Counted from the first letter of the stretch, positions 13,581 to 57,229 are shown. The stretch is DNA of 64,000 bases from Candidatus Poribacteria bacterium (GCA_963663765.2 CAXXUA010000003.1:558081-622080), one strand, 5' to 3'. The notes: generated by a model from the sequence alone, not told the origin. Translations and numbers: made by a program.

Positions 13581-15078
13581 TCTACAGTCAAACGTGACAT
13601 TCGTCAGTTGAAACAGGAAGGATATTTCGTTATGACGCGCGGGACGAAACACGATATGGGCCCCGGCACTTCTCATAAGACACAGATCATGGATCTGTAT
13701 TTCAAAGGCTAAACCTTCACCGAAATCGAGCAAAAAACAAACCACAGCGAACGGGCTGTCTACCGCTACTTGAGAGATTTCACACAAGTTGCCACGCTCC
13801 ATCATCAAGGCTTCCCTAATGCACAGATACGCCTGATTTCTCATCTCTCTGACCGGTTGATACGCGAGTATCTTTCGCTGTCCAAGGAATATCAACACAC
13901 CGATCGCATGACCCAACTCCTTCACCCAGAACCATAGGACACAAAAAAGGGGGATCTCTCATGAGTAAACCACTAACACGCACGCAAATCAACGAGAAAA
14001 TATTCAGACGCATCAACGATAAATCCCTACGACAGTTGCTTATCCATCGCTTTCTCAATGACTACGGGTATGACAAAGGCGAAGTCACTGCCACCGCCAT
14101 TGTTGATGATATTCTCAAGACCGTTGAGGACTATTTCGTAATTACCCTCCCCTTGGGGAAACTCGCCACCGGCGATCAACTCACAGATGAGCGTTTCCTG
14201 AGTTATGGACAACTCGTTTGGATGGCCATCCCTATTGATGAACATCCAGAAAGAGGGAAGTCCATCGTCAAAACTCGGATGAAACCCATCATCTTGACCT
14301 ATCTCGCTACCGAGGATATTGAATCTTTTCGAAACGGATTTACCTCCCGACAACTGTAAATCAATCGCTTAGTCCGCTGGTGTCATCAAGCCTATGACCA
14401 AGGTGCTTTATTGACACAACTCGATTTAGCCGTCTTGCTGAACGTCTGCGATGCTGTTGTCTGTGATTATGTCAATGAATGGCAAAAAACCACTGGTGAC
14501 ATCTTGCCCACTCGCGGCAACATCCATGATTTATCAGGTGCTATTACCCACAAGAAAGAGATCATCACCCTCTATCTTCAAGGACATCTCACCCCCAGAA
14601 TTGCCGCAAAGACCAAACACTCTAAAGAGGCAGTTGACCGATACATTCGCGATTATGAGAGCGTCAAAGTCGTTCGCAACGCAACTGCAGATATTGATAC
14701 AATCTCACAGATTACACGACTTTCTAAACGCGTTATCACTCAATATCTTGACCTTATTCCACAGCACCAACTTCAAACTATGGATGCAAACCTTGCCAAT
14801 TCATCTGCAAACGATGCAACAACACGCCAAGGAGAAGAACAATGATACTAAACCTCCTGTTCCACCAGACGAACATTATTCAGAAAAACCGAGGCAGTTT
14901 CCTTGAACATAGGATTGACAACTGCTACTTGTTTTGCTATACTCTAAGAATGTTTACCGTTAATCGCATCATTTCTCAAAGAGAATGATAGTTATTCCAA
15001 CTTAACCCACTCATCAACGATGGTTGCGAAGCTAATAAACATCAGCATTCCAGCTATCCTATGGTCATTTGATACTAT
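13575..15078 (+). mobile_element. DUF1670-pair element copy A: left end lost, both ORFs carry stops, right end intact
   Basis: Collinear with 51132-52633; stops near 13710, 13935 and 14357; right IR GGTCATTTGATAC 15063-15075 followed by TAT-TT. Confidence 0.9.
14915..14943 (+). promoter_or_regulatory. Sigma70-type promoter in the element 3' non-coding region (copy A)
   Basis: TTGACA-17 nt-TATACT with extended -10 TG; conserved in copy B. Confidence 0.7.
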
Positions 15079-18000
15079 TTTAAAATAACCATTTTACGCA
15101 GGAAAGACACACTGTCTGCCTGCAGTTGATAAACATAGATACCGTTTGCCACTCGTTCACCGAGATTGTTCCGACCATCCCAATGCGCAGCACTGCTTCG
15201 GGTTTTGTAGTATCCTGCCCGCTGATGCCCCAAGTCCAGTCGACGCACAATAACGCCACGAGCATCGTAAATCGTAATCTGCACGTTGCTGGCATTTGCC
15301 AACTGATACGGTATCCACGTCTCAGGATTGAACGGATTGGGAAAGTTTGACAGCAAGGCGGTATTATCAGGAATTTCAGGTGATGTTTGAACGGATGGCG
15401 CAGCATTGGCTACATCGGTGACATTGATTGTAACGGTGATGATATCAAGACCGTTTTTCCCATCATCAACAGATACTGTTACCGTATAGGATGTCTTTAT
15501 TTCATAATCAAGTGTAGCCTTCGTTTGTAGCTGCCCGCTTGTGCTAACAATATCAAACGAAGCAGCATCCGTGCCGCTGAGTGAATATGTAAGTGTATCA
15601 CTGGTATCTGAATCCGTTGCAGCCACTGGTGTGCCGATGCTTTGACCGGCTTCTGTATTTTCTGCAACGGATCGGGTGGTGCTGTCTCCGTCAGGAAACA
15701 CAGGCGGGTTGTTATTAATGTCAATATTAATGTCAATATTAGGATTATTTTCCTTGAGTCTGCGGAGCGGACCGTAATCTGAAATCGGGTTTCCGATGAT
15801 ATATAATGTATTCAGTGAAGTCAAACCTTCAAGTTCAGAGACATCACTGATTTGGTTACTGCTGAGAGATAATTTTTTCAGTTTTGTGTTATTATCAAAC
15901 ACACCAGTGGGTAATGAGGTCAGAGCATTACTGCCTATCCAAAGATCTTTCAGTTTTGTGTTATTGTCAAACACACCAGTAGGTAACGAAGTCAGATCAT
16001 TGCTGCCCAGCGCAAGTTCTCTTAGATTTGTGTTATTATCAAACACATTAGCAGGCAACGAAGTCAGCGCGTTGCTGCCCAGCACAAGCCATTCCAGTTT
16101 TGTGTTATTGTCAAACACATTAGTGGGTAACGAAGTCAGCTCGTTGCGGCTTAGCCAAAGATCTTTCAGTTCAGTGTTATTGTCAAACACATTAGCGGGC
16201 AAAGAGGTCAGATCGTTGTTGTTCAGCGTAAGCCATTCCAGTTTTGTATTGTTGTTAAACACATTAGCGGGTAATGCGGTCAGATCGTTATTGTTCAGAG
16301 CTAGGTCTGTCAGATTTATGTTATTGTCAAACACATTAGCGGGTAATGCGGTCAGATCGTTATTGTCCAGAGATAGGTATGTCAGATTTGTGTTATTGTC
16401 AAACACATTAGCGGGTAACGAAGTCAGATCGTTATGATACAGGTAGAGATCTGTTAGTTTTGTGTTATTGTCAAACACATTAGCGGACAATGCGGTCAGA
16501 TCGTTATCAGACAGGTAGAGGTCTGTCAGTTTTGTATTATTGTCAAACACATTAGCGGGTAAAGAGGTCAGACCGTTATGATACAGGTAGAGTTCTGTCA
16601 GTTTTGTGTTATTGTCAAACACACCAGCGGGTAACGAGGTCAGACCGTTAAAATGCAGCAATAGAGTTTTCAGTTTTGTATTATTGTCAAAGACACCAGC
16701 GGGTAACGAGGTCAGATCGTTTTTATACAGACTGATCCCTGTGAGTTTCGTGAGTTTGCCGAATACATCAGATCGCAACGAATTCAGTCCACTCCCACCA
16801 AACGAAAGGTATGTCAGTTTTGTGTTATTGTCAAACACTCCAGCGGGTAACGTTGTAAAATAGCATCCACCCAGTTCAATGGATCTCAGTTCAGTGTTTT
16901 CGTCAAAGACACCAGCGGGTAAAGATTTTAGACCGGTGTAGTAAAGACTAAGAGTTCTTAGCGCGGTCATACCGGAGAAATCACCTACTTTCAATGTGTT
17001 CATTTTTTTGTTATAAAGATTCAGATCATCAATCTGCTGAAGATGTTCTGATGTCACATCTTCAGCAGAATCCACACCTGCTGCCTTCACGATTGCATTC
17101 CGCACATGTGATGTGCGTTCACTGATTGGGACAATTATAGTTTCTGTCACGTCAGTGACATTGATAGTGACCGTGATTTCATCCTCGCCACTATTGCCAT
17201 CAGAGACAGAAATGGTTACCGTATAAGAGGTTTTTGTTTCATAATCAAGTGCAGCATTCGTCTGTAGCTGCCCGCTCGTGTTGACGATGCTAAACGATGT
17301 CGCATCCGTACCACTGAGAGTATATGTAAGCGTATCGTTATCCGCATCGGTTGCAGCAACAGGGTCTCCGATGTTCTGCTCAGATTCCGTATTTTCCACA
17401 ACTGACCGGGTTGTGCTATCGCCATCGGTGAATTCAGGGGTACGGTTTTCGTCCACATCAGTGACACTAATAGTGACCGTGATACTATCTCTACCACCAT
17501 TCCCATCAGACACTGTGATTGTCAAGGAATAAGATGTCTTGGTTTCATAATTTATGGCTGATCTTGTTAGCAGCTGCCCGTTTGTAGTGTTAATGCTAAA
17601 TGAGGCAGCATCCGTCCCACTGAAACTATAAGTAAGATCATCGTCATCTGCATCGGTTGCCCCAATCGCACTCCCGATATTCACGCCGGATCCCGTATTC
17701 TCCGCAACAGAGCGGGTTATGCTATCGCCATCTGTAAACACAGGTGCGCGGTTCTCGTCCACATCCGCCACATTGATTGTAATATCAATTTCGTCTGTGA
17801 GTGTTCCATCAGACACAGTGATTGTGACAGAATAGGAGTCTTTTGTTTCGTAATCCAGAGCGGCTTTCGTTCGCAAATGTCCTGAGCTGCTATCAATGCC
17901 AAACGAGGCAGCATCCGTTCCACCGAGACTATAAGTAAGCGTATCGTCATCTGCATCGGTTGCCCCAATCGCACTCCCGATATTCACGCCGGACCCCGTA

Positions 18001-21000
18001 TTCTCCGCAACAGAGCGGGTTGTGCTATCGCCATCTGTAAACACAGGTGCGCGGTTCTCATCCACATCCGCCACATTGATGGTAATATCGATTTCGTCTG
18101 TGAGTGTTCCATCAGACACGGTGATTGTGACAGAATAGGAGTCTTTTGTTTCGTAATCCAGAGCGGCTTTCGTTCGCAACTGTCCTGAGCTACTATCAAT
18201 GCTAAATGAGGCAGCATCCGTCCCACCGAGACTATAAGTAAGATCATCGTCATCTGCATCGGTTGCCCCAATCACACTCCCGATATTCACGCCGGACCCC
18301 GTATTTTCCGCAACGGAACGCGTTGTGCTATCGCCATCTGTAAACACGGGTGCGCGGTTCTCGTCCACATCCGCCACATTGATTGTAATGCTATCGCCAT
18401 CTGTAAACACAGGCTCGCGATTCTCGTCTACATCACTCACATTGATGGTAATGTCAATCGTATCTGTGAGTGTGCCATCGGAGACAATGATTGTTACTAA
18501 ATAACGAGCTTTGGTTTCATAATCCAAGGCAGTTTTAGTTTGCAGTTGTCCTGTCGTGTTAACAATGTCAAACGACGATGCATCCGTGCCACCGAGTGAA
18601 TATGTCAAGGTATCGCCATCGTCCGGATCGGTTGCTGATAACGCTCCACCGATATTCACTCTAGCCGCCGTATTCTCCGCGATAGACAGGGTAGTGTCGG
18701 TATTAGCAGCAATGACAGGTGCTTCATTGACATCCGTGACGTTAATTGTGACTGTGATTGTGTCTGTGTCACTACCATCTGTTACGGTGACAACAACTGT
18801 ATAAGACGATTTCGTTTCATGGTTCAGGGCAGCGTTCGTTTTCAGTTGCCCGTTTGTGTCGTCAATGCTAAACGAGGACGCATCTGTTCCACTCAGCAGG
18901 TACGCGAGCCTATTGTTATCCGCGTCTGTCGCAGCAATAGGTGTACCGATGTTTTTGTCTGCTGCTGTATTCTCAACAATAGATCGCTTTGTGCTTGTCC
19001 CATCTGTAAATACGGGTGGGTTGTTTGATGGTGTCTCGTCAAGGTTCGTGATGTTGATGGTAACTGTAATGGAGTCCGTAAGACTTCCATCAGAGACAGT
19101 AATTGTCACCGAGTAGACTTTTTTGGATTCATAGTCAAGCGTCGCTTTCGTCTTTAACTGTCCTTTTGTGCTGTCTAAACTAAACGACGCTATATCCGTG
19201 CCGCCCAGCGTATAGGTCAGTTTACTCCCTTCTGGATCAACAGCAGAAACAGCACTTCCGATGTTTATGTCTGCAGCAACATTCTCAGCGATTGAGCGGG
19301 TTGTGCTATCGCCATCAGAAATCGCAGGTGCTTCGTTGACATTGGTAACGTTAATGGTAACGGAGATGCTATCTGTGTCCGTACCGTCTGAGGCAGTGAC
19401 AGATACCGAGTAGGAGGATTTGCTCTCATAGTCCAACGTTTCGCTGGTTTTCAGTTGTCCTGAATAGCTATCAATGCTAAAAGAAGACGCATCGGTGCCA
19501 CTGAGACTATAAGTCAATTCATCATTGTCCGCATCAGTCGCAGCAACAGCACCACCGATGTCTACACCCGGACCCGTATTCTCTGTTACAGTGAGGGTCG
19601 TGCTACTCCCTCCTGTAAACTCCGGTGCGGTGTTTGTTGGCGTTTCGTCTACATCGGAAACATTTATCGTTACGGTGATACTATCACTACCACCGTTGCC
19701 ATCAGATACACTGATTGTCACCGAATAGGAGAACTTCGTTTCATAGTCCAGCGATGCACTTGTCCGCAACTGCCCCGAACTGCTATCAATGCTAAATGCC
19801 CCTGCATCTGTGCCGCTAAGGGTATAGGTGAGTGTATCACCATCCGTATCTGAAGCAGATACCGCAGTGCCGATATTGACACCAGAGCCTGTGTTTTCAG
19901 TGATGGAACGTGTTGTGCTATCGCCGTCTGAAAACACAGGGACGTTATTTAGAGGCGTTTCGTCTACGTCCGTAACATTAATTGTGACCGAGATACTATC
20001 AGTCCCGTTATTGCCATCAGACACAGTGATTGTCACGGAATACGACGACTTCGTTTCATAGTCAAGGGACGCATCGGTTCGCAGTTGTCCTGTTGTGCTA
20101 TCAATACTAAACGAGCCCTTATCCAGACCACCCAGTGTATAAGTCAATGTATGTCCGTCCGTATCGGTGGCTGATACAGCTTTCCCAATGTCAACACCAG
20201 CACCAGTGTTTTCCGCAACTGAGCGGGTGATGCTATCGCCATCTGTGAACTCTGGCGCGTTGTTTGTTGATGTGGTTTCAGGTTCCCCCGTTGTTATACG
20301 ACTATCCGTTACGGTTTTCTCATCCACATCTGTGACGTAGATTGTGACGTTAATCGTATCTGTGAGATTGCCATCTGAGACAGTTACCACCACTGAGTAT
20401 GAGTTTTTAGTTTCATAATCAAGGGACGCTTTTGTTTTCAACTGTCCCGTTGCGGTATCAATGGCAAATGATGAGGCATCTGTACCCCCGATGCTGTAGG
20501 TAAGTGGATCGTCATTCGTATCAGTTGCAGCAACCGGTTCACCAATATTTTCTCCTGCAGCCGTGTTCTCTGCGATGGGTCGCGTTGCGCTTGTGCCTTC
20601 TGTAAACACAGGTGCGCGGTTTTCATCCACATCCGTGACGTTGATTGTGACGTTAATCGTATCTGTGAGATTGCCATCTGAGACAGTTATCATCACCGAG
20701 TATGAGTTTTTAATTTCATAATCAAGGGACGCTTTTGTTTTCAACTGTCCCGTTGCGGAATCAATGGCAAATGCTGTTGCGTCTGTTCCACCAAGGCTAT
20801 AGGTGAGCGTATCGTCATCCGCATCAGTTGCAGCAACCGGTTCACCAATATTTTCTCCTGTAGCCGTATTCTCTGCAATAGATCGAGTTGTACTTGTACC
20901 TTCCGTAAACACCGGTGCGCGGTTTTCATCTACATCCGTGACGTTGATTGTGATGTTAATCGTATCTGTGAGACTACCGTCTGAGACAGTTATCATCACC

Positions 21001-23405
21001 GAGTATGAGTTTTTGGTTTCATAATCAAGGGACGCTTTTGTTTTCAACTGTCCCGTTGCGGTTTCAATGGCAAATGATGATGCATCTGTCCCACCCAGTG
21101 AATAAGTCAGAGTGTCGTCGTTAGCATCTGTGGCAGTGATCGCAGTGCTAATATCTATGCCTGCCGCCGTGTTCTCTGCGATTACGCGCGTAGTAGATGA
21201 CCCATCTGTAAACATAGGTGCTACATTTATACGTTTGAATATTTCCAGAGGTAAACCATCAGGTTTCACAAGTGTGTAACCACTATGTGTTGCGGGTAAA
21301 CTCGGCATCGTTTCAATATCTACCGTAACTGCATCCGTCGTCCCGGCAGTGCGGTTCACGAGGAAAGGGACACTCACCGCACTACCTTTTGAGATCATGA
21401 TGTTGTCTACACCAATACTCCCATTTTCGACGGAGATTTGTAGATTCATATCAAACGGTGCACCTGGTGGCACAACAGCTCTCACTTGGTTTTCACCGAC
21501 TTTTTCCAGTGTTACAGTCAAAGGTATAGATGAAACCGAATTCCCACTCAAGTTGAGATGATCTAATGATGTCAATCCAACAAAAATACCATTGGGTAGG
21601 TTTGTGAGTTGATTATTACTGAGATTAAGCGTTGTAAGTGAAAGCAGACCAGAGAAATCGCTTGCATCCAATGATGTGATTGACGTGCCACTGAGATTGA
21701 GAGTGGTTATTGTTGCAAGGTGGATGTTGCTTACATTACGGCAATCGGTTACATCCGGCACTGCATCGGTAATCGCTTCAATAACTTGGAGCGTGCGGTT
21801 ACAAACATCAGATTTGGCAAGTATATAACCGAAATGGTTGGCTGGCAATACCGGTAACTCCCCGATGCTTGGCGTGCCTACATACGTAAAACTTTCACTT
21901 GTCACGCTGCCTTTTGGGATCGTGACCATCAGGGAATTGTTGATAGGCAAAACAATGTCAAACGGCGCACCTGTTGATATAACAGCTCGGAACTGATTGT
22001 CTGACACCTGTTGTAATGACACAAGGAGTGGCATCGGAGCAACGGTGTTGCCTCCTAATCGGAGCGTCGTCAGCGATATAAGACCTTCAAATATACCATT
22101 CGGCAGAATGCTCAGCAGGTTACCATACAGATTTAAACTTGTGAGTCCTGTCAAACCGGCAAAATCACCTGATTTTAGCTCAGAAATACCCGCAGATCGT
22201 AAATTCAGGCTTGTAATTGCTGCGAGATGTGCACCAGTTACTTCCTCAGCAGAAGTTATTCCGGAGACCGCAGCAACAATAGCATCACGCACTTGCGGTG
22301 TACGCTTACTGACAGGCAGTGATGTTGCGGCTAAATCCATATCCGCTACGTCTATGACACTGACAATAACAGTGATGGTATTTGTGAGACTACCGTCAGA
22401 TACAGTGACTGCCACCGTATAGATGCTCTTTATTTCATAATCCAATGATGCACTTGTTTTCAACTGTCCTGTCGCACTATCGATCTCAAAAGCTGCTGCG
22501 TCAGTCCCGCTAAGTGTATAGCTCAAGGAGTCGTCATTGGCATCAGTTGCAGCAATCGCTGTGCCGATATTGACATCTGATGCAGTATTCTCTACTACTG
22601 ATCGGATGGCGATTATGCCATCTGTGAACACTGGCACGGCAGCTTCCTTTACTGGCAGCGGGGTGACTTCATCAGGTGGATCTACTGGGTCAACAGGCGG
22701 TGTAATAACTACTGCACCTATAACTTCAATCGGGAGATCGTCTGATTTAGATAAAGTATAGCCGTAATGATTACTCGGCAGATTTGGCAATGTCCCGATG
22801 TCCGCAGTAACAGCATCGGTAGTGCCTGCGGTGCGAGTAACCGTCAAAGTATCGCTTTCCACGCTCCCCTTGGCAATCGTGAGTGTCGTTGCACTGTCAA
22901 CTATACTGCCGTTAGTGACACTAACCGGCAAGACAATATCAAATGGTGACCCTGTTGGTACAACTGCTTTGAACCGACCACCACTGTCTCCGACCCTTTC
23001 AAGCGAAACTGTTATTGGTAAAGGATGAACTGTGTTACCACCTAATCGAAGCGTTGTTAAAGCAGTCAATCCTTCAAAGATACCATCTGGAAGCTTGCTT
23101 AGCATATTACCGTATAGATTTAGGGTTGTTAGCCCAGTTAGCCCCGAAAGATCGCCTGATTTTAGGGCAGTAATCCCTTTGGAGCGTAGGTTGAGACTGG
23201 TGATGGTGGTGAGGTGTGTTTCGGTTACATCCGTAGCAGAAGTAACACCTGCTGCCGCTATGATCGCTTCACGCACCTGCGGCGTGCGATCATTGACAGG
23301 TGGTATCTCAGCATACACCATGAGAAATGGACTAAATACTATCAATAGTGACCTGAAAATAGATATAGTATACTTGAGATTTACCGCCTGCGTTTTCATG
23401 TTCAA
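15075..23405 (-). CDS. Giant secreted LRR + cadherin-repeat protein with FlgD/T9SS-like tail (2776 aa)
   Basis: Cadherin motifs APVF..ENT..ATDAD..LDYETK; 24-aa LRRs LPANVFDNNTKL; tail ending RKMVILK; its stop TAG overlaps the element right end. Confidence 0.9.
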   Translation of the reverse strand: MNMKTQAVNLKYTISIFRSLLIVFSPFLMVYAEIPPVNDRTPQVREAIIAAAGVTSATDVTETHLTTITSLNLRSKGITALKSGDLSGLTGLTTLNLYGNMLSKLPDGIFEGLTALTTLRLGGNTVHPLPITVSLERVGDSGGRFKAVVPTGSPFDIVLPVSVTNGSIVDSATTLTIAKGSVESDTLTVTRTAGTTDAVTADIGTLPNLPSNHYGYTLSKSDDLPIEVIGAVVITPPVDPVDPPDEVTPLPVKEAAVPVFTDGIIAIRSVVENTASDVNIGTAIAATDANDDSLSYTLSGTDAAAFEIDSATGQLKTSASLDYEIKSIYTVAVTVSDGSLTNTITVIVSVIDVADMDLAATSLPVSKRTPQVRDAIVAAVSGITSAEEVTGAHLAAITSLNLRSAGISELKSGDFAGLTGLTSLNLYGNLLSILPNGIFEGLISLTTLRLGGNTVAPMPLLVSLQQVSDNQFRAVISTGAPFDIVLPINNSLMVTIPKGSVTSESFTYVGTPSIGELPVLPANHFGYILAKSDVCNRTLQVIEAITDAVPDVTDCRNVSNIHLATITTLNLSGTSITSLDASDFSGLLSLTTLNLSNNQLTNLPNGIFVGLTSLDHLNLSGNSVSSIPLTVTLEKVGENQVRAVVPPGAPFDMNLQISVENGSIGVDNIMISKGSAVSVPFLVNRTAGTTDAVTVDIETMPSLPATHSGYTLVKPDGLPLEIFKRINVAPMFTDGSSTTRVIAENTAAGIDISTAITATDANDDTLTYSLGGTDASSFAIETATGQLKTKASLDYETKNSYSVMITVSDGSLTDTINITINVTDVDENRAPVFTEGTSTTRSIAENTATGENIGEPVAATDADDDTLTYSLGGTDATAFAIDSATGQLKTKASLDYEIKNSYSVMITVSDGNLTDTINVTINVTDVDENRAPVFTEGTSATRPIAENTAAGENIGEPVAATDTNDDPLTYSIGGTDASSFAIDTATGQLKTKASLDYETKNSYSVVVTVSDGNLTDTINVTIYVTDVDEKTVTDSRITTGEPETTSTNNAPEFTDGDSITRSVAENTGAGVDIGKAVSATDTDGHTLTYTLGGLDKGSFSIDSTTGQLRTDASLDYETKSSYSVTITVSDGNNGTDSISVTINVTDVDETPLNNVPVFSDGDSTTRSITENTGSGVNIGTAVSASDTDGDTLTYTLSGTDAGAFSIDSSSGQLRTSASLDYETKFSYSVTISVSDGNGGSDSITVTINVSDVDETPTNTAPEFTGGSSTTLTVTENTGPGVDIGGAVAATDADNDELTYSLSGTDASSFSIDSYSGQLKTSETLDYESKSSYSVSVTASDGTDTDSISVTINVTNVNEAPAISDGDSTTRSIAENVAADINIGSAVSAVDPEGSKLTYTLGGTDIASFSLDSTKGQLKTKATLDYESKKVYSVTITVSDGSLTDSITVTINITNLDETPSNNPPVFTDGTSTKRSIVENTAADKNIGTPIAATDADNNRLAYLLSGTDASSFSIDDTNGQLKTNAALNHETKSSYTVVVTVTDGSDTDTITVTINVTDVNEAPVIAANTDTTLSIAENTAARVNIGGALSATDPDDGDTLTYSLGGTDASSFDIVNTTGQLQTKTALDYETKARYLVTIIVSDGTLTDTIDITINVSDVDENREPVFTDGDSITINVADVDENRAPVFTDGDSTTRSVAENTGSGVNIGSVIGATDADDDDLTYSLGGTDAASFSIDSSSGQLRTKAALDYETKDSYSVTITVSDGTLTDEIDITINVADVDENRAPVFTDGDSTTRSVAENTGSGVNIGSAIGATDADDDTLTYSLGGTDAASFGIDSSSGHLRTKAALDYETKDSYSVTITVSDGTLTDEIDITINVADVDENRAPVFTDGDSITRSVAENTGSGVNIGSAIGATDADDDDLTYSFSGTDAASFSINTTNGQLLTRSAINYETKTSYSLTITVSDGNGGRDSITVTISVTDVDENRTPEFTDGDSTTRSVVENTESEQNIGDPVAATDADNDTLTYTLSGTDATSFSIVNTSGQLQTNAALDYETKTSYTVTISVSDGNSGEDEITVTINVTDVTETIIVPISERTSHVRNAIVKAAGVDSAEDVTSEHLQQIDDLNLYNKKMNTLKVGDFSGMTALRTLSLYYTGLKSLPAGVFDENTELRSIELGGCYFTTLPAGVFDNNTKLTYLSFGGSGLNSLRSDVFGKLTKLTGISLYKNDLTSLPAGVFDNNTKLKTLLLHFNGLTSLPAGVFDNNTKLTELYLYHNGLTSLPANVFDNNTKLTDLYLSDNDLTALSANVFDNNTKLTDLYLYHNDLTSLPANVFDNNTNLTYLSLDNNDLTALPANVFDNNINLTDLALNNNDLTALPANVFNNNTKLEWLTLNNNDLTSLPANVFDNNTELKDLWLSRNELTSLPTNVFDNNTKLEWLVLGSNALTSLPANVFDNNTNLRELALGSNDLTSLPTGVFDNNTKLKDLWIGSNALTSLPTGVFDNNTKLKKLSLSSNQISDVSELEGLTSLNTLYIIGNPISDYGPLRRLKENNPNIDINIDINNNPPVFPDGDSTTRSVAENTEAGQSIGTPVAATDSDTSDTLTYSLSGTDAASFDIVSTSGQLQTKATLDYEIKTSYTVTVSVDDGKNGLDIITVTINVTDVANAAPSVQTSPEIPDNTALLSNFPNPFNPETWIPYQLANASNVQITIYDARGVIVRRLDLGHQRAGYYKTRSSAAHWDGRNNLGERVANGIYVYQLQADSVSFLRKMVILK

Positions 23406-24611: not shown

Positions 24612-26741
24612 TTACTTCAAAATCAACATCTTACGCGTAGCAGAAAACTGTCCTGCTGATAATGTATAGAAATACACGCCGCTTGCGACGTGTTCTCCTT
24701 GTGCATTTTTGCCATCCCAATGGGCAGCGTGGTTCCGATAATGATATGTGCCGATGGGTTGGTGTCCTAAGTCTAATGTGCGTATCAACTTACCATCTGT
24801 TGTATATATGGAAATACTAACATCAGCGGGGGTTGCTAACTGATAAGGTATCCACGTCTCTGGGTTGAATGGGTTAGGGTAGTTCGGCAACAAAGCAGTC
24901 TCTTTCGGTGTAAGCGAGGCGAGTAGTTGTTCCAATACCAATATACCACGTTGGAAATCGAGATCAGTTAGGTTGAGTTGCCGTGCTTCGTTTAGCCATG
25001 CTTCTACATCTGCTCTTGTAAGACCGATCTCCGAATTGCGACTCCACGCAAGAGGTGCGGCCGCAGTATTCCCAAACGCTGCTGCTACCAATGTCAAGTC
25101 AACGATATTGACAACGCCATCCCCATTTACATCTGCAGCATTGGTGCCTGTTGCACCAAAGTTAGTTGCGACGAGTGTGAGATCAACGATATTCACTACA
25201 CCATCCTCATTCACATCTTCAGACAGAAATATAGGTTCGGTAATTTCTGCGTTCTCTGTTTGTGGATTTGTGGTTTCTCCAGAACTATCAGTCAATATCA
25301 CATCAGAAAGCATCACGGTAGAGGCTTTAACCGAGACGACCTCAAATGTGATGGTGGCAAGTGTGCCATCTCCCATCGTTTCCCCAGCAAGTGATGTTGC
25401 TGCCAGTTGGACAGAGTTGCCTTCAACTTGTGGTGGAATAAAGAATGCACCTGAAGGTAGATAAGAACCATTGTCGCTTTGCACATAACTGAGGGTAGTG
25501 GTGTCAAACTGCACTGTGGCTTGGTAGCCCGCGACGTTTTGACCTTCTGCTATATTGAGTGAGAAAGTGAGTTGTTCACCGACATCCGGAGACACAACAC
25601 TCTCTGGTGAAAGACTCACAACGGTGGGTGATGTTGGCGTCGGGATGAGATCCCACAGCAGCACGGTGTCATCAGAACTCCCACTTGCGAATGTGGTGCC
25701 ATCAGGACTAAAAGATACGCTACTGACCGAATCCGTATGCCCCGATATTGTTCGTATGTGTGTGCCTGTGTCTGCCTCCCACAAACGGATGGTACCGTCC
25801 GAACTCCCACTTGCGATTGTGCTCCCATCAGTACTAAAAAATACGCTAAAGACATAAGACGTATGCCCTGTGAGTGTTCGTATGTGTGTGCCGGTGTCTG
25901 CTTCCCACATACGGATGGTTCTGTCCGCACTCCCACTTACGAGTGTGGTGCCATCAGGACTAAAAGATACGCTATAGACCCAACCCGTATGCCCTGTGAG
26001 TGTTCGTATGTGTGTGCCTGTGTCTGCCTCCCACATACGGATCGTTCTGTCCGAACTCCCACTGGCGATAGTGGTGCCATCAGGACTAAAAGATACGCTA
26101 AAGACATCCCACGTATGCCCTGATAGTGTTCGTATGTGTGTGCCTGTGTCTGCATCCCACAAACGGATGGTTCTGTCCGAACTCCCACTGGCGATAGTGG
26201 TGCCATCAGGACTAAAAGATACGCTTCTGACATCATCCGTATGCCCTGAGAGTGTTCGTATGTGTGTGTCGGTGTCTGCATCCCACAAACGGATCGTGCT
26301 GTCAAAACTCCCACTTGCGATAGTGCTCCCATCAGGACTAAAAGATACGCTATAGACCCAACCCGTATGTCCTGATAGTGTTCGTATGTGTGTGCCGGTG
26401 TCTGCATCCCACAAACGGATCGTGCTGTCAAAACTCCCACTTGCGATAGTGCTCCCATCAGGACTAAAAGATACGCTAAAGACATCATCCGTATGCCCTG
26501 AGAGGAGGTCAAGTTCTTCACCTGTCTGTGCGTCGTATATCCAAACACCTATGCTGCTTGCCACTGCCAACTTGCTGCCATCGGGAGAATAGGCAACATT
26601 CCCAGTAATCTCTCCTTTCCCGAGACGTGCTTTTGCACCTTCGGGTAGATGCCATTGCGATGAGTCTTGGGCGCGGGTGTTGGTGGTAAAGATTAGTGTT
26701 ATGAATAGTGTTATCAAGATTGAATACAATATGTTTTTCAT
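24612..26741 (-). CDS. Secreted WD40 + cohesin-like + dockerin-like protein with FlgD/T9SS-like tail
   Basis: MKNILYS signal peptide with RBS; 126-bp WD40 repeats; NVAGYQATVQFD; DVNEDGVVNIVDL x2; RKMLILK. Confidence 0.9.
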   Translation of the reverse strand: MKNILYSILITLFITLIFTTNTRAQDSSQWHLPEGAKARLGKGEITGNVAYSPDGSKLAVASSIGVWIYDAQTGEELDLLSGHTDDVFSVSFSPDGSTIASGSFDSTIRLWDADTGTHIRTLSGHTGWVYSVSFSPDGSTIASGSFDSTIRLWDADTDTHIRTLSGHTDDVRSVSFSPDGTTIASGSSDRTIRLWDADTGTHIRTLSGHTWDVFSVSFSPDGTTIASGSSDRTIRMWEADTGTHIRTLTGHTGWVYSVSFSPDGTTLVSGSADRTIRMWEADTGTHIRTLTGHTSYVFSVFFSTDGSTIASGSSDGTIRLWEADTGTHIRTISGHTDSVSSVSFSPDGTTFASGSSDDTVLLWDLIPTPTSPTVVSLSPESVVSPDVGEQLTFSLNIAEGQNVAGYQATVQFDTTTLSYVQSDNGSYLPSGAFFIPPQVEGNSVQLAATSLAGETMGDGTLATITFEVVSVKASTVMLSDVILTDSSGETTNPQTENAEITEPIFLSEDVNEDGVVNIVDLTLVATNFGATGTNAADVNGDGVVNIVDLTLVAAAFGNTAAAPLAWSRNSEIGLTRADVEAWLNEARQLNLTDLDFQRGILVLEQLLASLTPKETALLPNYPNPFNPETWIPYQLATPADVSISIYTTDGKLIRTLDLGHQPIGTYHYRNHAAHWDGKNAQGEHVASGVYFYTLSAGQFSATRKMLILK

Positions 26742-26764: not shown

Positions 26765-26900
26765 CTATTTCCGTATTAACATTTTGCGCGTAGTTGAGAC
26801 CTTGCCAGCGGTGAATGTATAGAAATACACGCCGCTTGCGACAGGTTCTCCTTGTCCGTTTTTGCCATCCCAATCGGCAGCACGGCTACGCTGATGATAC
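26765..26900 (-). pseudogene. Orphan secretion-tail stub
   Basis: Encodes ...WDGKNGQGEPVASGVYFYTFTAGKVSTTRKMLIRK* with no upstream gene body. Confidence 0.75.
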
Positions 26901-27240: not shown

Positions 27241-28459
27241 ATTCTATTGAGATAGTGAGTATTCAAGAAATACTCACTATGTTTTGATAATGTCAAATAT
27301 AATGACTTGTGCTAGTTATCTGATAGTTTTGTTGGTTTTCACAAGTGTCTATATTCTGTATGAGCGATTTCCGAATCGCGATTTTTTATTATCGGGAATT
27401 GGAGTTCACTCCTACATTTTAGACTGACATCCGCCTGAAATTAAAGGAATTTAAACATAAATGTGACGGATATGTGAAATATAGACATACTAAATGTTAA
27501 CTAGCACAAGTCGTTATTTTAAAATCACCATTTTACGCAGGAAAGACACACTGTCTGCCTGCAGTTGATAAACATAGATACCGTTTGCCACTCGTTCACC
27601 GAACTCGTTCCTACCATTCCAATACACCGCACGACTCCGACTCTTATAGAACCCTATTTGTTGATGCCCGAGACCTAATTTACGCACAACATTTCCGCCT
27701 ATATCATAGATAGTGACACTCACATCACTCGGCTTTGCCAACTGATACGGTATCCACGTCTCCGGATTGAACGGGTTGGGATAGTTGGGTAGTAATCCTG
27801 TTACTGTTGGCACATTTGGAATACTATTGGGAGCACCACCTATTGCAGGAATGACTTCCAAAGGAAGATTGCTGGATTTGACGGGTCTATAGCCAAAATG
27901 GAAATGAGAGTCTGGCCTCGGCAACGTTCCAATATTTACGGTGACAGCCTCGGTCGTTCCAGTAGTGCGGACCACTGTCAGAGTATCGTCGCTTTCCACT
28001 TTACCTTTGCCGACAGTGATAGTGGTAGCCTCTCCACTGATACTACCATTGGTCACACTGAACGGTAATACAATTTTATAGGTTGCACCTGTGTTGACTG
28101 TTGCTTTGAACTGTCCTTCCGCGATCTTTTTGAGTGACACAACGATTGTCAAAGGGTTCTGTGAATTGGAAGAAAGGTTAAGCAGGTTTAAGGAGGACAA
28201 GCCCTCAAATACACCCGCAGGAAGACTCGACAACGAGTTGCCTGCAAGATTAAGTGTTCTCAAGGAGGACAAGTCCTCAAATACACCCGTAGGAAGACTC
28301 GACAACGAATTGGCCACAAGTCTGAGTGTAGTCAAGGAGGACAAATTCTCAAATACATTTTCTGGAAGACTCGAAATAGAATTAAATCTTAGGTCTAATT
28401 CTCTCAAAGAAGCCAACCCACTAAAATCTCCGTTTTGCAATGATCCAATTGATTTACTA

Positions 28460-49714: not shown

Positions 49715-49850
49715 CTATTTCAAAATCAACATTTTACGCAAGGCAGAATAATCCCCTGCCTTGAACTGATAAGAATACACGCCACTCGCCACAAGTTCTC
49801 CCTGCGCGTTTTTACCATACCAATGGGCACCGTTGCTACGATAAGGTGTT
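49715..49850 (-). pseudogene. Orphan secretion-tail stub
   Basis: ...AHWYGKNAQGELVASGVYSYQFKAGDYSALRKMLILK*. Confidence 0.7.
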
Positions 49851-49979
49851 TGATAAGTAAAATGTTGACATCCGTAAACAGTTTTCTTTTCATTAGAAAA
49901 TTCTCCTTTTCAATCATTAATGGTTTGCAGGCGCGATTCGGAGATCGCACCTACAAAAAGCGGAACCCATAAATAGGCT

Positions 49980-50486: not shown

Positions 50487-50642
50487 TTTTTTATTCTCCT
50501 TTCTAAATTACACCAAACACGTAAGTGTGAGGCTTCGGTTGACGATTGCGCTAAACAATCTATGAGATGGTTTGTGTATCGACTCCAGGATTAAAAATCA
50601 ATCCTGATACAGCGTTACTTATAGTTTGTATCAAATGACCCC

Positions 50643-50672
50643 ATGAGTTATACTTTTAGTATGAGTTATACT
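50643..50672 (+). repeat. 12-bp direct repeat ATGAGTTATACT x2 inside the element left end (possible protein-binding site)
   Basis: 50643-50654 and 50661-50672; also present in copy C. Confidence 0.7.
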
Positions 50673-50720
50673 AACGAGTAGATGTATTCGGATCCCGTTA
50701 ATCTATTCATGGAGGTCAAC

Positions 50721-51521
50721 ATGAACCGCAAAAAGGATACCGCCTACGGTATTAACCGGCTCGAATCCAAGAATGCCAGAGCCGCTATTATTCAGAAGAT
50801 ATCAGCAGACTTTAATCTAATGCCTATTGTTGCTGAAGCCTACTATAAACAGATTTCTACTTACTTTGAACAACATACCGATGTGAAACTGACATCAGGA
50901 CAAATCTGCTACGAGGCTGTCGCTGCTGAGGAACCCGCAGGTAAACACATCGCTTTAGCGAAAAAAATCTCCTGTCGGCTCACCCTCAATGACACAAACG
51001 CTGATCTTGAAGTCTTAGCGACTTATGGACTTGCAGGACTCAGACGACATCGGATCCTCCGATTGACCAAAGAAGCCTATGACCAAGATTCCTTACTGAG
51101 CTATGAAGATTTAGCTGTCTTATTAACCACCAGTCCTTCTACAGTCAAACGTGACATTCGTCAGTTGAAACAGGAAGGATATTTCGTTATGACGCGCGGG
51201 ACGAAACACGACATGGGTCCCGGCACTTCTCATAAGACGCAGATCTTGGAGCTGTATTTCAAAGCCTATACCTTTACCGAAATCGAGCAAAAAACGAACC
51301 ACAGCGAACGCGCTGTCTACCGCTACTTGAGAGACTTCACACAAGTTGCTACGCTCCATCATCAGGGGTTCCCTAACGCACAGATACGTCTCATTTCCCA
51401 TCTCTCTGATAGGCTAATCCGCGAGTATCTCTCGCTGTTCAAGGAATACCAACACACCGAACGCATGAACCAACTTCTTCACCCAGAACCAGAGGAAACA
51501 AAAAAGGGGGATCTCTCATGA
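50721..51521 (+). CDS. DUF1670-like protein A
   Basis: RBS ggagg; EAYDQ..LL..EDLAVLL..S..TVKRDI...TRG..HD.G...SHK...HS..AV.RY pattern, recognised from memory as DUF1670. Confidence 0.75.
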   Translation: MNRKKDTAYGINRLESKNARAAIIQKISADFNLMPIVAEAYYKQISTYFEQHTDVKLTSGQICYEAVAAEEPAGKHIALAKKISCRLTLNDTNADLEVLATYGLAGLRRHRILRLTKEAYDQDSLLSYEDLAVLLTTSPSTVKRDIRQLKQEGYFVMTRGTKHDMGPGTSHKTQILELYFKAYTFTEIEQKTNHSERAVYRYLRDFTQVATLHHQGFPNAQIRLISHLSDRLIREYLSLFKEYQHTERMNQLLHPEPEETKKGDLS

Positions 51522-52402
51522 GTAAACCTTTGACGCGCACACAAATCAACGAGAAGAAATTCAGACGCATCAACGATAAATCCCTACGACAGTTGCTTAT
51601 CCATCGCTTTCTCAATGACTACGGGTATGACAAAGGCGAAGTCACTGCCACTGCCATTGTTGATGATATTCTCAAGACCGTTGAGGACTATTTCGTAATT
51701 ACCCTCCCCTTGGAGAAACTCGCCACCGGCGATCAACTCACAGATGAGCGTTTCCTGAGTTATGGACAACTCGTTTGGATGGCCGTCCCTATTGATGAAC
51801 ATCCAGAAAGAGGGAAGTCCATCGTCAAAACTCGGATGAAACCCATCATCTTGACCTATCTCGCTACCGAGGATATTGAATCTTTTCGAAACGGATTTAC
51901 CTCCCGACAACTGCGAATCAATCGCTTAGTCCGCTGGTGTCATCAAGCTTATGACCAAGGTGCTTTATTGACACAACTCGATTTAGCCGTCTTGCTGAAC
52001 GTCTGCGATGCTGTTGTCTGTGATTATGTCAATGAATGGCAAAAAACCACTGGCGACATCTTGCCCACTCGGGGCAACATCCATGATTTATCAGGTGCCA
52101 TTACCCACAAGAAAGAGATCATCACGCTCTATCTTCAAGGACATCTTACTCCCAGAATCGCCGCAAAAACCAAACATTCTAAGGAGGCAGTTGACCGATA
52201 CATTCGCGATTATGAGAGCGTCAAAGTCGTTCGCAACGCAACTGCAGATATTGATACAATCTCACAGATTACACGACTTTCTAAACGCGTTATCACTCAA
52301 TATCTTGACCTTATTCCACAGCACCAACTTCAAACTATGGATGCAAACCTTACCAATTCATCTACAAACGATGAAACAACACACCAAGGAGAAGCACAAT
52401 GA
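51518..52402 (+). CDS. DUF1670-like protein B (paralog of A, ATGA-coupled)
   Basis: QAYDQGALLTQLDLAVLL...PTRGNIHDL...THKK...HSKEAVDRY. Confidence 0.78.
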   Translation: MSKPLTRTQINEKKFRRINDKSLRQLLIHRFLNDYGYDKGEVTATAIVDDILKTVEDYFVITLPLEKLATGDQLTDERFLSYGQLVWMAVPIDEHPERGKSIVKTRMKPIILTYLATEDIESFRNGFTSRQLRINRLVRWCHQAYDQGALLTQLDLAVLLNVCDAVVCDYVNEWQKTTGDILPTRGNIHDLSGAITHKKEIITLYLQGHLTPRIAAKTKHSKEAVDRYIRDYESVKVVRNATADIDTISQITRLSKRVITQYLDLIPQHQLQTMDANLTNSSTNDETTHQGEAQ

Positions 52403-52469
52403 TACCCTAACCTCCTATTCCAAACGAACTTTATTCTGCAAAACCGGGGTAGTTTCCCTGAAAATAGGG

Positions 52470-52498
52470 TTGATAACCGTCCCCAGCCTTGCTATAAT
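52470..52498 (+). promoter_or_regulatory. Sigma70-type promoter in the element 3' non-coding region (copy B)
   Basis: TTGATA-17 nt-TATAAT with extended -10 TG. Confidence 0.7.
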
Positions 52499-52504
52499 TT
52501 AGAC

Positions 52505-52617
52505 ACGTTTATCGCTAACCGCATCATTTCTCAAAGAGAATGGTAGCGATTCCAACTTAACCCACTCATCAACGATGGTTGCGAAGCTAATAAACATCAG
52601 CATTCCAGCTATCCTAT
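52505..52617 (+). ncRNA. Putative element-encoded small structured RNA
   Basis: Lies downstream of the conserved promoter; two hairpins; the 3' about 85 bp are identical in copies A and B; inferred, with no expression data. Confidence 0.4.
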
Positions 52618-52629
52618 GGTCATTTGATA

Positions 52630-52815
52630 CTATTTCAGTATCAACATTTTGCGTGTAGCAGAGACCTTCCCTGCTGATAATGTATAGAAATACACGCCGC
52701 TTGCGACGTGTTCTCCTTGTGCGTTTTTGCCATTCCAATGCGCAGCATGGTTATGGTTTTGAGACATACCCACCTGTAGGTGTCCAAGTGCTAACGTCCG
52801 CACTAACGTGCCGTT
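52630..52815 (-). pseudogene. Secretion-tail fragment, out of frame with the upstream WD40 gene
   Basis: ...AVNGTLVRTLALGH...RKMLILK*; stop overlaps the element right end. Confidence 0.75.
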
Positions 52816-55800
52816 TACTGCCCTGATGAATGTTTCCACAAGAGTATCCTGCCATCCTGTCCACTACTTGCTATATTCTTGCCATCTGGGCTGAACGCAA
52901 CACCATAAACTACATCATCATGCCCTTGAAGAACTCGTAGGGACACACCGGTTTCTGCGTTCCAGATACGGACTGTGCCATCCCTACTTGCGCTTGCGAG
53001 TGTTTTTCCACCCGGACTGAACGCAACACCACAAACTACATCATCATGCCCTTGAAGAACTCGTAGGGACACACCGGTTTCTGCGTTCCAGATACGGACT
53101 GTGCCATCCTCACTTGCGCTTGCGAGTGTTTTTCCATCCGGACTGAACGCTATACTAAATACATCATTATCATGCCCTTGAAGAACTCGTAGGGACACAC
53201 CGGTTTCTGCGTTCCAGATACGGACTGTGCCATCCCTACTTGCGCTTGCGAGCATTTTTCCATCCGGACTGAACGCAACACCATAAACTACATCATCATG
53301 CCCTTGAAGAACTCGTAGGGACACACCGGTTTCTACATTCCAGATGCGGACTGTGCCATCCTCACTTGTGCTTGCGAGTGTTTTTCCACCCGGACTGAAC
53401 GATACATTATAGACTGGTTCTTCATGCCCTTGAAGAACTCGCAGTTGTTTGCCAGTCTTCACATCACAAAAATAGATGTTATTATCATCGCCTCCAGCTG
53501 CAAGTGTTTTTCCATCCGGACTAAATGCTACTAAATAGATTTTATCCGTATTCCCAGTGACAGTGATGATGTGCTGCAGTGTTCCAGTTTCCACATCCCA
53601 TAACTTGATGATATTATCGAGACTCTGACTTGCTAACATATTGCCATTAGGATTAAAGACTATATTGAAGACAGGTTTCTGATTAAGGTCAGCAATTATA
53701 GTCTCTTTCATTATATTCTCCGTGTGAACGATTGGTTCTGATCCAGTCTTTACATCCCATTCCCGGATAGAATTATCTCCACCCCTGCTTGCGATAGTCT
53801 GTCCATTGGGACTGAACGCTACACTAAAGACAGCACTCGTATGACCAATGAACATACGCAGCTGTGATGCTGTCTGTGCGTCCCACAGACGGATTGTCCT
53901 ATCCTCACTTGCGCTTGCGAGTGTTTTCCCATCCGGACTGAACGCTATGCTATATACTGCACCTGAATGCTTCGTAAGGGTCTGTTTCTCCGTGCCGGTC
54001 TGTGCGTCCCACAGACGGATTGTCCTATCCTCACTTGCGCTTGCGAGTGTTTTCCCATCCGGACTGAACGCTATGCTATATACTGCACCTGAATGCTTCG
54101 TAAGGGTCTGTGTTTCTGCGCCTGTTTTCATATCCCACAGACGGATTGTCCTATCCATACTTGCGCTTGCGAGTGTTTTTCCATCCGGATTGAACGCAAT
54201 ACTACGGACACTATCTGTATGCCCCTGAAAAATATGTTCCTCTGTATTGGTTTTCATATCCCATAAACGGACGGTATTATCCGCACTGCCGCTTGCGAGT
54301 GTTTGCCCATCCGGACTGAACGCAACACTATACACAAAACCTGTATGCTCCTTAAGAATGTGCTTTCTGTCGGTCTCGAAATTCAATAGAAGGATGGTAT
54401 TATCCGCACGTCCGCTTGCGAATGCCGTTCCATTCTGACTGACCGTTAGGCAAAGGAAAGGATCCGTATAGTTAATGGCGGGTTCCAACATACTGACATT
54501 CCAGATTGCGTTACCACTTGCCACTATAAGCTCAACCCCACCTCCACCTGCACCTTGTAGATACTTTATTTCCCCGGTGCCATTGTTAATGAGCCTTACA
54601 GGTTCAGTTATCTCAACGTTTTCAACGTGTAACTTGAAACCATTCTTCGCGCTGTTGTATAGCAGCACATCGGATAAGATCAAAGTGGATGGTTTGGCAG
54701 TGATAACTTCAAAGGTCAGTAAAGCAAGTGAACCGTGTTCGTTTTTGATTTCACCTGTGGTATTCATTGCGGTAAGCATGACCTTATTCTTTTCAACAAC
54801 AGGAGTCTTAAAGTCTACATTTGCTGCAGGTAAAAAACCACCATTTGCAGCGGAGACATAGCGGATGGCAGTATCATCAAACGTCACGGTAGCTTGATAC
54901 CCTGATACGTTTTGACCTTCTGCTATATTGAGTGAGAAAGTAAGTTGTTCACCGACATCCGGAGACGCAACACTCTCTGGTGAAAGACTAACAACGGTGG
55001 GTGATGTTGGCGTCGGGGTGAGATCCCACAGCAGCACAGTGCCATCCCTACTCGCACTTGCGAGTGTGGTGCCATCAGGACTAAAAGATACGCTATTGAC
55101 ATAACCCGTATGCCCTGATAGTGTTCGCATGTGCGTTCCTGTGTCTGCCTCCCACAAACGGATCTCTTGCCAACTCCCACTTGCGAGTGTGGTGCCATCG
55201 GGACTAAAAGAGGTGCTCTCGACATCATCCGTATGCCCTGTGTCTGCGTTCCACAAACGGATGTCCCCGCTCCCACTTGCGAGTGTGGTGCCATCAGGAC
55301 TAAAAGAGACGCTATTGACCGTATCCCAATCCCCTTCTAGTGTTCTTATGTGTGTGCCTGTGTCTACGTTCCACAAACGGATGGTGCTGTCCGAACTCCC
55401 ACTTGCGAGTGTGCTCCCATCAGGACTAAAAGAGACGCTATTGACATAACCCGTATGCCCTGATAGTGTTCGCATGTGTGTGCCTGTGTCTGCCTCCCAC
55501 AAACGGATCTCTTGCCAACTCCCACTTGCGAGTGTGGTGCCATCAGGACTAAAAGAGACGCTATTGACCCAACCCGTATGCCCTGATAGTGTTCGCATGT
55601 GTGTGCCTGTGTCTGCCTCCCACAAACGGATCTCTTGCCAACTCCCACTTGCGAGTGTGGTGCCATCAGGACTAAAAGAGACGCTACTGACCGTATCCCA
55701 ATGCCCTGATAGTGTTCTTATGTGTGTGCCTGTGTCTGCGTTCCACAAACGGATGGTGCTGTCCGAACTCCCACTTGCGAGTGTGCTCCCATCAGGACTA

Positions 55801-56834: not shown

Positions 56835-56862
56835 TATTATTCTCCTTATGTTGACTGCTATT

Positions 56863-57229
56863 ATAGTTTGTATCAAATGACCCCATGAGTTATACTTTTA
56901 GTATGAGTTATACTAACGAGTAGATGTATTCGGATCCCCGTTAATCTATTCATGGAGGTCAACATGAATCGCAAAAAGGATACCGCCTACGGTATTAACC
57001 GGCTCGAATCTAAGAATGCCAGAGCCGCTATTATTCAGAAGATTTCATCAGACCTTAATCTAATGCCTATCGTTGCTGAAGCCTACTATAAACAGATTTC
57101 TACGGACTTTGAACAACATACCGATGTGCAACTGACATCAGGACAAATCTGCTACGAGGCTGTCGCTGCTGAGGAACCCGCAGGTAAACACATCGCTTTA
57201 GCGAAAAAACTCTCCTGTCGGCTCACCCT
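56863..57229 (+). mobile_element. DUF1670-pair element copy C: left end and 5' part of ORF A only
   Basis: Matches 50621-50986; IR GTATCAAATGACC 56870-56882; fused by deletion to a cohesin-coding segment. Confidence 0.88.

Follow-up and report, generated by a model that had tools for sequence, protein, structure and literature searches.

Which activity places a small repeated element, always in one orientation, at the very last codon of a gene, and what becomes of the stop codon that it displaces? This question is raised by a 64,000-nt stretch of DNA (the window, meaning here the whole stretch analysed) on contig 3 of the 6.35-Mb, 15-contig genome of a Candidatus Poribacteria bacterium, in which copies of an element abut genes for type IX secretion system (T9SS) tails. 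The two genes of the element belong to DUF1670 (PF07900), a family without assigned function. An initial annotation of the window had placed all element junctions at the terminal Lys-stop of tail genes and had the stop codon restored by the element, and this was found at all four junctions in the window and at 7/7 right ends in the genome. Comparison of the sequences establishes that insertion is exact to the base and keeps one orientation: in genes with the ending ...RKM-x-I-x-K-stop, the element enters behind the second base of the last codon and supplies an A and a TAG. The element is an insertion sequence of an undescribed family, in which the target is probably selected by protein and the DNA cut and joined by the pair of DUF1670 proteins itself.

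Structure of the element and its junctions in the window

When the window was compared with itself, the element was the single dispersed repeat outside the tandem arrays of 126-nt WD40 repeats. Copy B (50621–52633, + strand), delimited by blast against the window and the genome and by reading of its ends, is the only complete copy in the window, with 2013 bp and both genes open. The element has imperfect terminal inverted repeats (TIRs) of 16–20 bp and the ends 5'-ATAG...CTAT-3'. The left TIR of copy B, ATAGTTTGTATCAAATGACC (50621–50640, + strand), is kept at 6/6 left ends of the genome and across relatives, and the right TIR, GGTCATTTGATACTAT (52618–52633, + strand), is identical or nearly so at 7/7 right ends of the genome and in the loci of 30/30 genomes; its last four bases are the A and the TAG on the coding strand of the host gene. 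Over all ends the repeats are ATAGT[TTG]TATCAAATGACC at the left and GGTCATTTGATACTAT at the right. Two DUF1670 genes are the sole genes between the inverted repeats of copy B. ORF1 (50721–51521, + strand) encodes a protein of 266 aa counted from MNRKK (PF07900, E 2.9e-61), for which an upstream ATG at 50682 is an alternative start giving 279 aa (homologues have 263–285 aa), and its stop is overlapped (ATGA) by the start of ORF2 (51518–52402, + strand), which encodes a paralogous DUF1670 protein of 294 aa (PF07900, E 9.6e-62). A 230-nt non-coding region at the right contains a promoter-like site, TTGATA-17-TATAAT with a TG (52470–52498, + strand, 11/12 matches), which lies 135 nt from the right end and faces out through it. 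The -10 box (TATACT/TATAAT) and stems downstream of it are conserved in 46 distinct right ends, and the changes in the stems look compensatory. In the integrated element this site is antisense to the host tail, and in a form with joined ends it would point into ORF1-ORF2.

At the right junction of copy A, ...GATACTAT (15071–15078) is followed by TT (15079–80) and then by taaaataaccat, which on the reverse strand reads ATG GTT ATT TTA AA/A TAG, the slash here and below marking a junction. The host of copy A is a 2776-aa tail gene ending in ...RKMVILK (15075–23405, - strand), whose TAG and third Lys base come from the element. The right junction of copy B has the same form, GATACTAT (52626–33) followed by TT (52634–35) and cagtatcaacat, or ...MLILK-TAG on the coding strand, where the TAG (52630–52632) is supplied by the element and the TT, the right copy of the duplicated dinucleotide, corresponds to the AA of the host's last Lys codon. 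The left junction of copy B reads gcgTTAC/TT (50619–20)/ATAG (50621 onwards): the left copy of the duplicated TT follows gTTAC, whose TTAC is the displaced G-TAA of the host's Lys-stop. As the annotation had stated, removal of copy B rebuilds a site nearly like the empty target at 40206, which has the context ttacttcagtatcaccat. The left junction of copy C, gttgactgCTA/TT (56861–62)/ATAG, has one T fewer than the ...gttgactgCTATTTccg found at the empty sites 26765 and 63702, and on the coding strand its flank reads AA-TAG-cagtcaac, with one A fewer than the empty sites. This flank (56858–56862) has CTA-TT where the rule is CTA-T-TT, and leftward of it lie a spacer and then the start of the next WD40 gene.

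Two points of the initial annotation had to be corrected. The left limit of copy A (13575) and the right limit of copy C (57229) are internal truncations and not junctions, and the host of copy B is not a full gene, being only a T9SS-tail fragment of 69 aa ending in ...RKMLILK (52630–52839, - strand), out of frame with an upstream WD40 ORF of 1353 aa. Copy A (13575–15078, + strand) retains the right 1.5 kb only, lacks the left 513 bp and has one TAA in ORF2 (13575–15080 against 51132–52635, 93.8% identity over 1508 nt). Copy C (56863–57229, + strand) retains the left 367 bp only (56861–57229 against 50619–50986, 97% identity). At 57229 it runs into the interior of a WD40 gene (57152–58111, - strand) that is truncated and lacks its C-terminal part and tail; this gene probably hosted copy C originally, until a deletion occurred. 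Next to copy A, a 12-nt inverted repeat (AGGACTTACGCA ... TGCGTAAGTCCT) at 13461–13580 flanks an AT-rich segment of about 120 bp, which ends exactly at the truncation; this segment may be a small miniature element (MITE) or the cause of the truncation.

Copies in the genome and independence of the insertions

Blast searches with copy B plus its flanks revealed in the genome four full-length copies (2012–2016 bp, 91.7–95.1% identical), in two of which both genes are open, as well as copies A and C, a right-end fragment, and an internally deleted copy of 438 bp that keeps both ends and a proper junction. All seven right ends lie at the last Lys codon (AA/A-TAG) of a different tail gene each and at the same base. 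For a random insertion the chance of the right spot is about 4e-6, given about 51 tail ends in 6.35 Mb and one position and orientation at each. At the left ends, 4/6 fit the pattern [stop codon][third Lys base]TT, one has AT for TT, and at copy C a base is missing.

The host genes are paralogues in tandem arrays, and two copies on contig 13, located 2 kb apart, have homologous left flanks. It might be argued from this that the element has no specificity and that one ancestral insertion was spread together with its flanks by duplication or conversion within the multigene family, which was also the outcome that would have spoken against the initial annotation. However, when the two contig-13 copies were compared in 100-nt steps, identity fell from 88–98% inside to 63–75% outside exactly at both junctions. 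Between copies of the genome, identity is 77–99% over the final 201 nt of the element, whereas the flanks reach 50–85% over the first 60 nt and 50–71% over 300 nt. Also, 62 distinct right flanks were obtained from 25 genomes, and the same junction occurs in unrelated phyla. The annotation had called for a comparison of filled and empty alleles across relatives, and in the case of the host gene of the contig-2 copy, full-length orthologues (76–80% identity) from nine sister species, ending in AAA or AAG plus TAA, TAG or TGA, were unoccupied in 9/9 cases. A spread from one insertion is rejected by these data and almost certainly did not occur.

For the copy B locus, a DNA search among 40 relatives gave no orthologous empty site. 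In the sister species, the left flank of the contig-2 copy does not lie beside the orthologue of the host gene, and as the region downstream of this host gene differs in all species, nothing firm on recombination can be drawn from it. The suggestion that recombination between copies reshuffles the adhesin array gained no solid evidence: truncated copies A and C are at hand, and the shared flanks seen in one relative (L017, L058, L059, L063) lie near contig ends and may be assembly artefacts. The left flanks of the contig-2 copy and of contig-13 copy C13_b read A-TAG-TAA..., with two successive stops, and that of C13_b equals the C13_a flank with an extra TAG; such a double stop could be a natural tandem stop or the trace of an earlier insertion.

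The target in related genomes, in a sister lineage and in other phyla

The close relatives are all labelled Candidatus Poribacteria, which are sponge symbionts. ORF2 is present in 37/121 genomes of the order, where it frequently occurs in multiple identical copies, and a census was made of 90 loci from 30 genomes, comprising 69 loci of tail-targeting lineages (25 genomes) and 21 loci of a sister lineage. For the tail-targeting loci, 65 of the 67 resolved right junctions abut a Lys-ending T9SS-type tail, with 62 distinct flanks from 25 genomes, and the other two are off-target, one of them holding the look-alike tcaacatttt. Among the resolved left flanks, 53/55 read TTA, CTA or TCA followed by C or T and by TT, and TT was paired with TT in 53/55. 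This mapping of all ends, which the initial annotation had proposed together with a target logo, places most junctions at the AA of the last Lys codon. The logo, YTAY/TT/NNN-DAT-NAN-CAT-YTT-NCG-NGT-NGC, is codon-periodic and has nothing conserved past the stop. As the original Lys codon was AAG in 35/55 left flanks while the right junction shows AAA every time, the element ends in CTAT and the duplication is 2 bp. The two loci without a resolved right junction, L065 and L072, both belong to genome G106, and in both of them one and the same foreign sequence breaks the right repeat at one identical base (GGTCATATG/GTAGTGATAGG...); the right inverted repeat may here be the target of a second element.

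In the sister lineage, ORF2 is 72–80% identical and the ends are the same, and 18/21 loci are situated in the loop of a repeated hairpin. Empty hairpins, of which two genomes contain 45 and 41 copies, read GAAACCGAGTTTTTTCTTCAAAACTCGGTTTC (GAAACCGAGTTTTTTCTTC...), and filled hairpins read ...GAGTTTTTT[element]TTCTTC..., a comparison that directly shows TT to be duplicated.

Relatives of ORF1 with 59–66% identity occur in metagenome-assembled genomes (MAGs) labelled Gemmatimonadota, Ignavibacteria, Bacteroidetes/Saprospiraceae, Calditrichota, KSB1 and others. Using the ORF1 alignment to locate such loci, a right repeat abutting a T9SS-type tail was found in 16 of 25 loci examined, the remaining nine being cut by contig ends or giving no match to the regular expression for tails. 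Of these 16 junctions, three have Gln (CAA) or Arg (AGA) as the last codon, and in one locus (L175) the duplication is CT/CT. From the CAA and AGA junctions it follows that what remains constant is entry behind the second base of the final codon, and the A brought by the element preserves any purine-ending two-fold codon. The two-gene unit, with nothing else between the inverted repeats, was encountered in at least 8 phylum-level groups.

Contigs from sponge metagenomes (Logan) show the element joined to many different flanks on either side, and also forms with internal deletions (50728>52606 and 50956>52367). The summed depth at the element ends in such contigs is about 60x that of the flanks, as for a high-copy repeat across communities, and many ORF1 relatives among metagenome proteins are located on contigs of 1.9–2.1 kb, the size of the element.

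Could the unit be a domesticated pair of regulators attached to secretion cargo genes rather than a transposon? Database names such as biotin operon repressor and response regulator, the constant position beside T9SS cargo genes and a promoter facing the cargo gene would agree with such a role. TIRs, a 2-bp duplication, many identical copies per genome and a presence in only 37/121 genomes do not, nor do decayed and internally deleted copies or a sister lineage that resides in intergenic hairpins without a cargo gene, and we consider the regulator explanation hardly credible.

How the target may be chosen

Two kinds of molecule could read the target, an RNA or a protein. A transcript from the outward promoter might pair with the target in the way of the bridge or seeker RNAs of IS110/IS1111, and the element does have a strong conserved promoter 135 nt from its right end, conserved stems with compensatory-looking changes and a non-coding region of 230 nt. 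However, in four elements drawn from both lineages, target and element interior have no word of at least 9 nt in common, whichever strand is read. The 62 distinct targets vary at almost all third codon positions, and the element has no Rfam match and no DEDD domain. In addition, locus L024 combines a right non-coding region of the hairpin lineage with a position in a T9SS tail, uncoupling this region from the target. Because of these observations an RNA guide is very improbable.

With regard to the proteins, four residues of ORF2 (T128S, Q131E, C163R, G193A) are fixed within and differ between the two target lineages, whereas ORF1 has none of this kind. All four are in or beside the winged helix of ORF2, and judged from the alignments they might serve as a lead on target choice, and as a lead only.

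The DUF1670 proteins and the question of catalysis

Both proteins match PF07900 over their full length (207.1 and 208.7 bits; gathering cut-off 25 bits) and show weak matches to HTH_23, HTH_28 and HTH_29. Searching 1.84 billion representatives gave 993 clusters of ORF2 relatives at E <= 0.001, among them natural fusions with two (519–544 aa) or three domains (930–952 aa). From these fusions and from the overlap of the genes (ATGA) we infer that the two proteins act together; predictions of an ORF1-ORF2 heteromer scored 0.20, 0.42 and 0.18 against a mark of 0.32. ORF1 has 1382 relatives; those that are named appear as hypothetical protein, biotin operon repressor, response regulator or DUF1670 protein, and among the 120 listed none is named transposase. 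A full-text literature search found no paper on DUF1670/PF07900, no paper on this element was among the titles listed for insertion sequences in connection with type IX secretion and stop codons, and the element had no match in a plasmid collection searched in protein mode.

The AlphaFold model of ORF2 (pLDDT 83.4, pTM 0.62) consists of an N-terminal helical/beta part, a winged helix (128–192) and a helix-turn-helix (HTH) domain (195–269). Residues H197, H220 and Y228 are invariant in 74 sequences of the ORF2 family, and the matching residues H171/K172, H194 and Y202 are invariant in 46 sequences of the ORF1 family. Pfam and NCBIfam scans gave no Phage_integrase, DEDD or Tns family match for either protein.

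As both proteins appear as DNA-binding modules with no recognisable catalytic fold, they might only recognise the element ends and the target, with cutting and joining performed in trans by a host recombinase or nuclease or by the transposase of another element. The gene-less 438-bp derivative with intact ends points to mobilisation in trans at least within the family. On the other hand, a shared partner would be needed in all of the at least 8 phylum-level groups, although no search for a co-occurring gene was made, and invariant His, Lys, His and Tyr residues in both paralogues would be unusual for plain DNA binding. We regard an enzyme acting in trans as rather unlikely, but as the alternative to be taken most seriously.

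If instead the DUF1670 pair is itself the transposase, as we think probable, insertion could proceed as follows. A protein, for which the winged helix of ORF2 is the best candidate, would recognise the DNA of about the last eight codons, whose sequence is constrained by the coding, and the pair would cleave and join by means of a cut staggered by 2 bp, for which the invariant His-Lys...His...Tyr cluster is a candidate active site. As the junctions themselves show, the right end provides the A and the TAG, which preserves the Lys codon (Gln or Arg in relatives) and ends translation immediately after it, and the original third base and stop are displaced to the left flank. The outward promoter might drive ORF1-ORF2 only from a form with joined ends, or might counter transcription reading into the element. 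Because the junction carries a working stop, selection would be expected to keep it after decay of the element, with which four short right-end remnants are in agreement.

Several observations weigh against this interpretation. Pfam and NCBIfam scans of both proteins gave DUF1670 and HTH matches only and no transposase model (E <= 0.01), Foldseek comparison of the ORF2 model with the PDB gave nothing at E <= 0.001, and a wide structural search gave winged-helix and HTH matches only (best Z 6.3), with the N-terminal 127 residues of ORF2 barely covered. In the model the invariant His/His/Tyr residues sit in the second HTH and could simply contact DNA, and the four lineage-specific residues may reflect shared descent and not target choice. 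The dinucleotides are unequal in three junction pairs (C13_b, AT/TT; L035, CT/TT; L176, TT/TG). No circle junction, joined ends or empty-site joint was detected in the Logan contigs of four runs, and the copies in this genome are 5–8% diverged, with broken genes in two of the four full-length ones, so that activity of the element here may be old. A single match to the joined-ends pattern in metagenome contigs was rejected as a chance match inside an unrelated AT-rich gene. Nor is the site proven to be safe: several insertions come between the tail gene and the following gene, which begins 13–21 nt past the stop, and the strong promoter of the element is directed antisense into the host gene.

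The initial annotation had described the site as a safe harbour. Its first half stands, as the conserved 3' end is used site-specifically and the frame is closed (7/7 right ends in this genome, 65/67 in the census, 16/25 in other phyla), and with 5/7 occupied host ORFs being long (691–2776 aa) this fits a low-cost site. Its second half, harmlessness, was not established, given the 2/7 hosts that are short fragments, the separation from the next gene and the antisense promoter.

Empty targets and the tail family

All of five tails tested matched TIGR04183 (T9SS type A sorting domain) with 30.8–38.5 bits over model positions 2–71 of 72, above the NCBIfam cut-off of 23 bits. In Kamke et al. 2014 (PMC3909097), TIGR04183 tails are described on eukaryote-like repeat proteins of Poribacteria, and Por structural genes are stated not to have been found in poribacterial genomes. 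A catalogue of tails built with a regular expression over the whole genome contains 50 Lys-ending tails, of which 7 are occupied, 4 carry a right-end remnant of 11–45 nt and 39 are empty; the tail at 49715, read directly, is added to these.

The eight empty sites listed by the annotation were all recovered as Lys-stop ends of tail ORFs, all on the - strand. The one at 40206–40211 (AAG TAA) closes a 2945-aa gene. Six others in the catalogue are 5875–5880 (AAG TAG), 24612–24617 (AAG TAA), 26765–26770 (AAA TAG cagtcaac...), 27514–27519 (AAA TAA), 58146–58151 (AAG TAA) and 63702–63707 (AAA TAG cagtcaac...), and the eighth, outside the catalogue, is 49715–49720 (AAA TAG, tail ...GVYSYQFKAGDYSALRKMLILK).

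The four solo remnants follow tail genes at C2:89392, C6:448427, C13:591402 and C3:402271 of the genome of the window (G000; C2, C13 and so on are its contigs), and the element-derived stop is kept in them. Among the 39 empty Lys-ending tails, 21 have a TAG stop, against 28% of 2250 long ORFs. These TAG stops may be footprints of old insertions, but two points weigh against the footprint idea: AAG-TAG, present in 8 of the 21, could not have been written by the element, and the paralogues are not independent. Five tail ends (26765, 63702, C7:61625, C15:573286 and C4:1056979) share the spacer TAG-cagtcaacataagg..., the first bases of which resemble the right end of the element, TAG-tatcaaatgacc; this spacer may be a very old end remnant.

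The tails of the WD40 arrays (26765, 58146, 63702 and 52630) are short separate ORFs of 45–69 aa, out of frame with the preceding WD40 ORFs, and could have arisen by frameshifts, by assembly errors in the 126-nt repeats or by gene decay. Elsewhere in the genome, 36/39 empty tails close ORFs of at least 300 aa.

Three further features of the window were noted. A tandem repeat at 2412–3242 has a period of about 176 bp with copies 96–98% identical by self-blast. The 2945-aa gene, a cadherin-repeat tail gene, is directly followed downstream by a gene for a 265-aa protein (39349–40146) with a concanavalin-like lectin domain (Laminin_G_3, E 1.9e-23), and next to the same 2945-aa gene lies a 220-aa ORF (38369–39031) with a partial DDE_Tnp_1 match (E 3.4e-7), the remnant of a different, conventional insertion sequence.

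Implications and comparison with known systems

If the DUF1670 pair is a transposase, it constitutes a new enzyme class and possibly a compact, protein-addressed and orientation-specific insertion system with natural examples of retargeting. A more far-reaching proposal, for which we see somewhat less than an even chance, is that the pair represents a class of transposases without known catalytic folds, working as a heteromer that uses the His-Lys/His/Tyr cluster for a staggered 2-bp insertion and a winged helix as long, re-targetable address, given that the tail-targeting and the hairpin lineage are set apart by a handful of substitutions, and that its insertion and decay wrote TAG stops and end remnants onto some tail genes. 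A transposon directed to the last codon throughout a gene family, with a four-base rebuild of the stop, would be a case of harm avoidance. The elements mark 3' ends of T9SS-type cargo genes and would explain many 2-kb repeat contigs in sponge metagenomes. They are widespread in Poribacteria, Ignavibacteria, Bacteroidota, Calditrichota, KSB1, Gemmatimonadota and others, where their proteins are annotated only as hypothetical protein or repressor.

The sister lineage, with 18/21 loci at a single base of a hairpin loop, resembles insertion sequences directed to repetitive extragenic palindromes (REP) or other hairpins, such as IS1397, ISKpn1, ISPsy8 and members of IS110/IS1111 with a seeker or bridge RNA (bioRxiv 10.1101/2024.04.26.591405). 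Elements of these kinds use a DDE (IS3-type) or a DEDD transposase, with a guide RNA in IS110/IS1111, whereas neither such enzymes nor a guide were found here.

With IS630/Tc1-mariner elements the present element shares its small size, TIRs, a 2-bp duplication and, on the side of the transposase, tandem HTH modules. It differs in that TT (sometimes CT) and not TA is duplicated, in having two paralogous genes instead of one, and in its long gene-specific target. Moreover, no DDE/D domain is detected by sequence, and the N-terminal 127 residues of ORF2 are the part barely covered by the fold search.

Phage 21 and e14 in icd, and islands of a similar kind, enter the 3' end of a tRNA or protein gene by means of tyrosine or serine integrases and bring tens of bases of identity. 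The likeness lies in an element that carries the bases restoring the interrupted gene end, but here four bases (A-TAG) are restored and no integrase domain was detected by sequence. Of the tyrosine-recombinase residues (R-K-H-R-H/W-Y), invariant H, K, H and Y are present, but in a region matched by HTH folds only.

Tn7 inserts at attTn7, downstream of glmS, by means of TnsABC and TnsD and with a 5-bp duplication. The present element is situated inside the last codon, has a 2-bp duplication and about 50 sites per genome in place of one, and no Tns families were detected in it. In its logic it is nevertheless similar to the TnsD pathway of Tn7, where a DNA-binding protein reads the conserved 3' end of a gene and insertion takes place at a fixed distance and in one orientation, leaving the gene intact.

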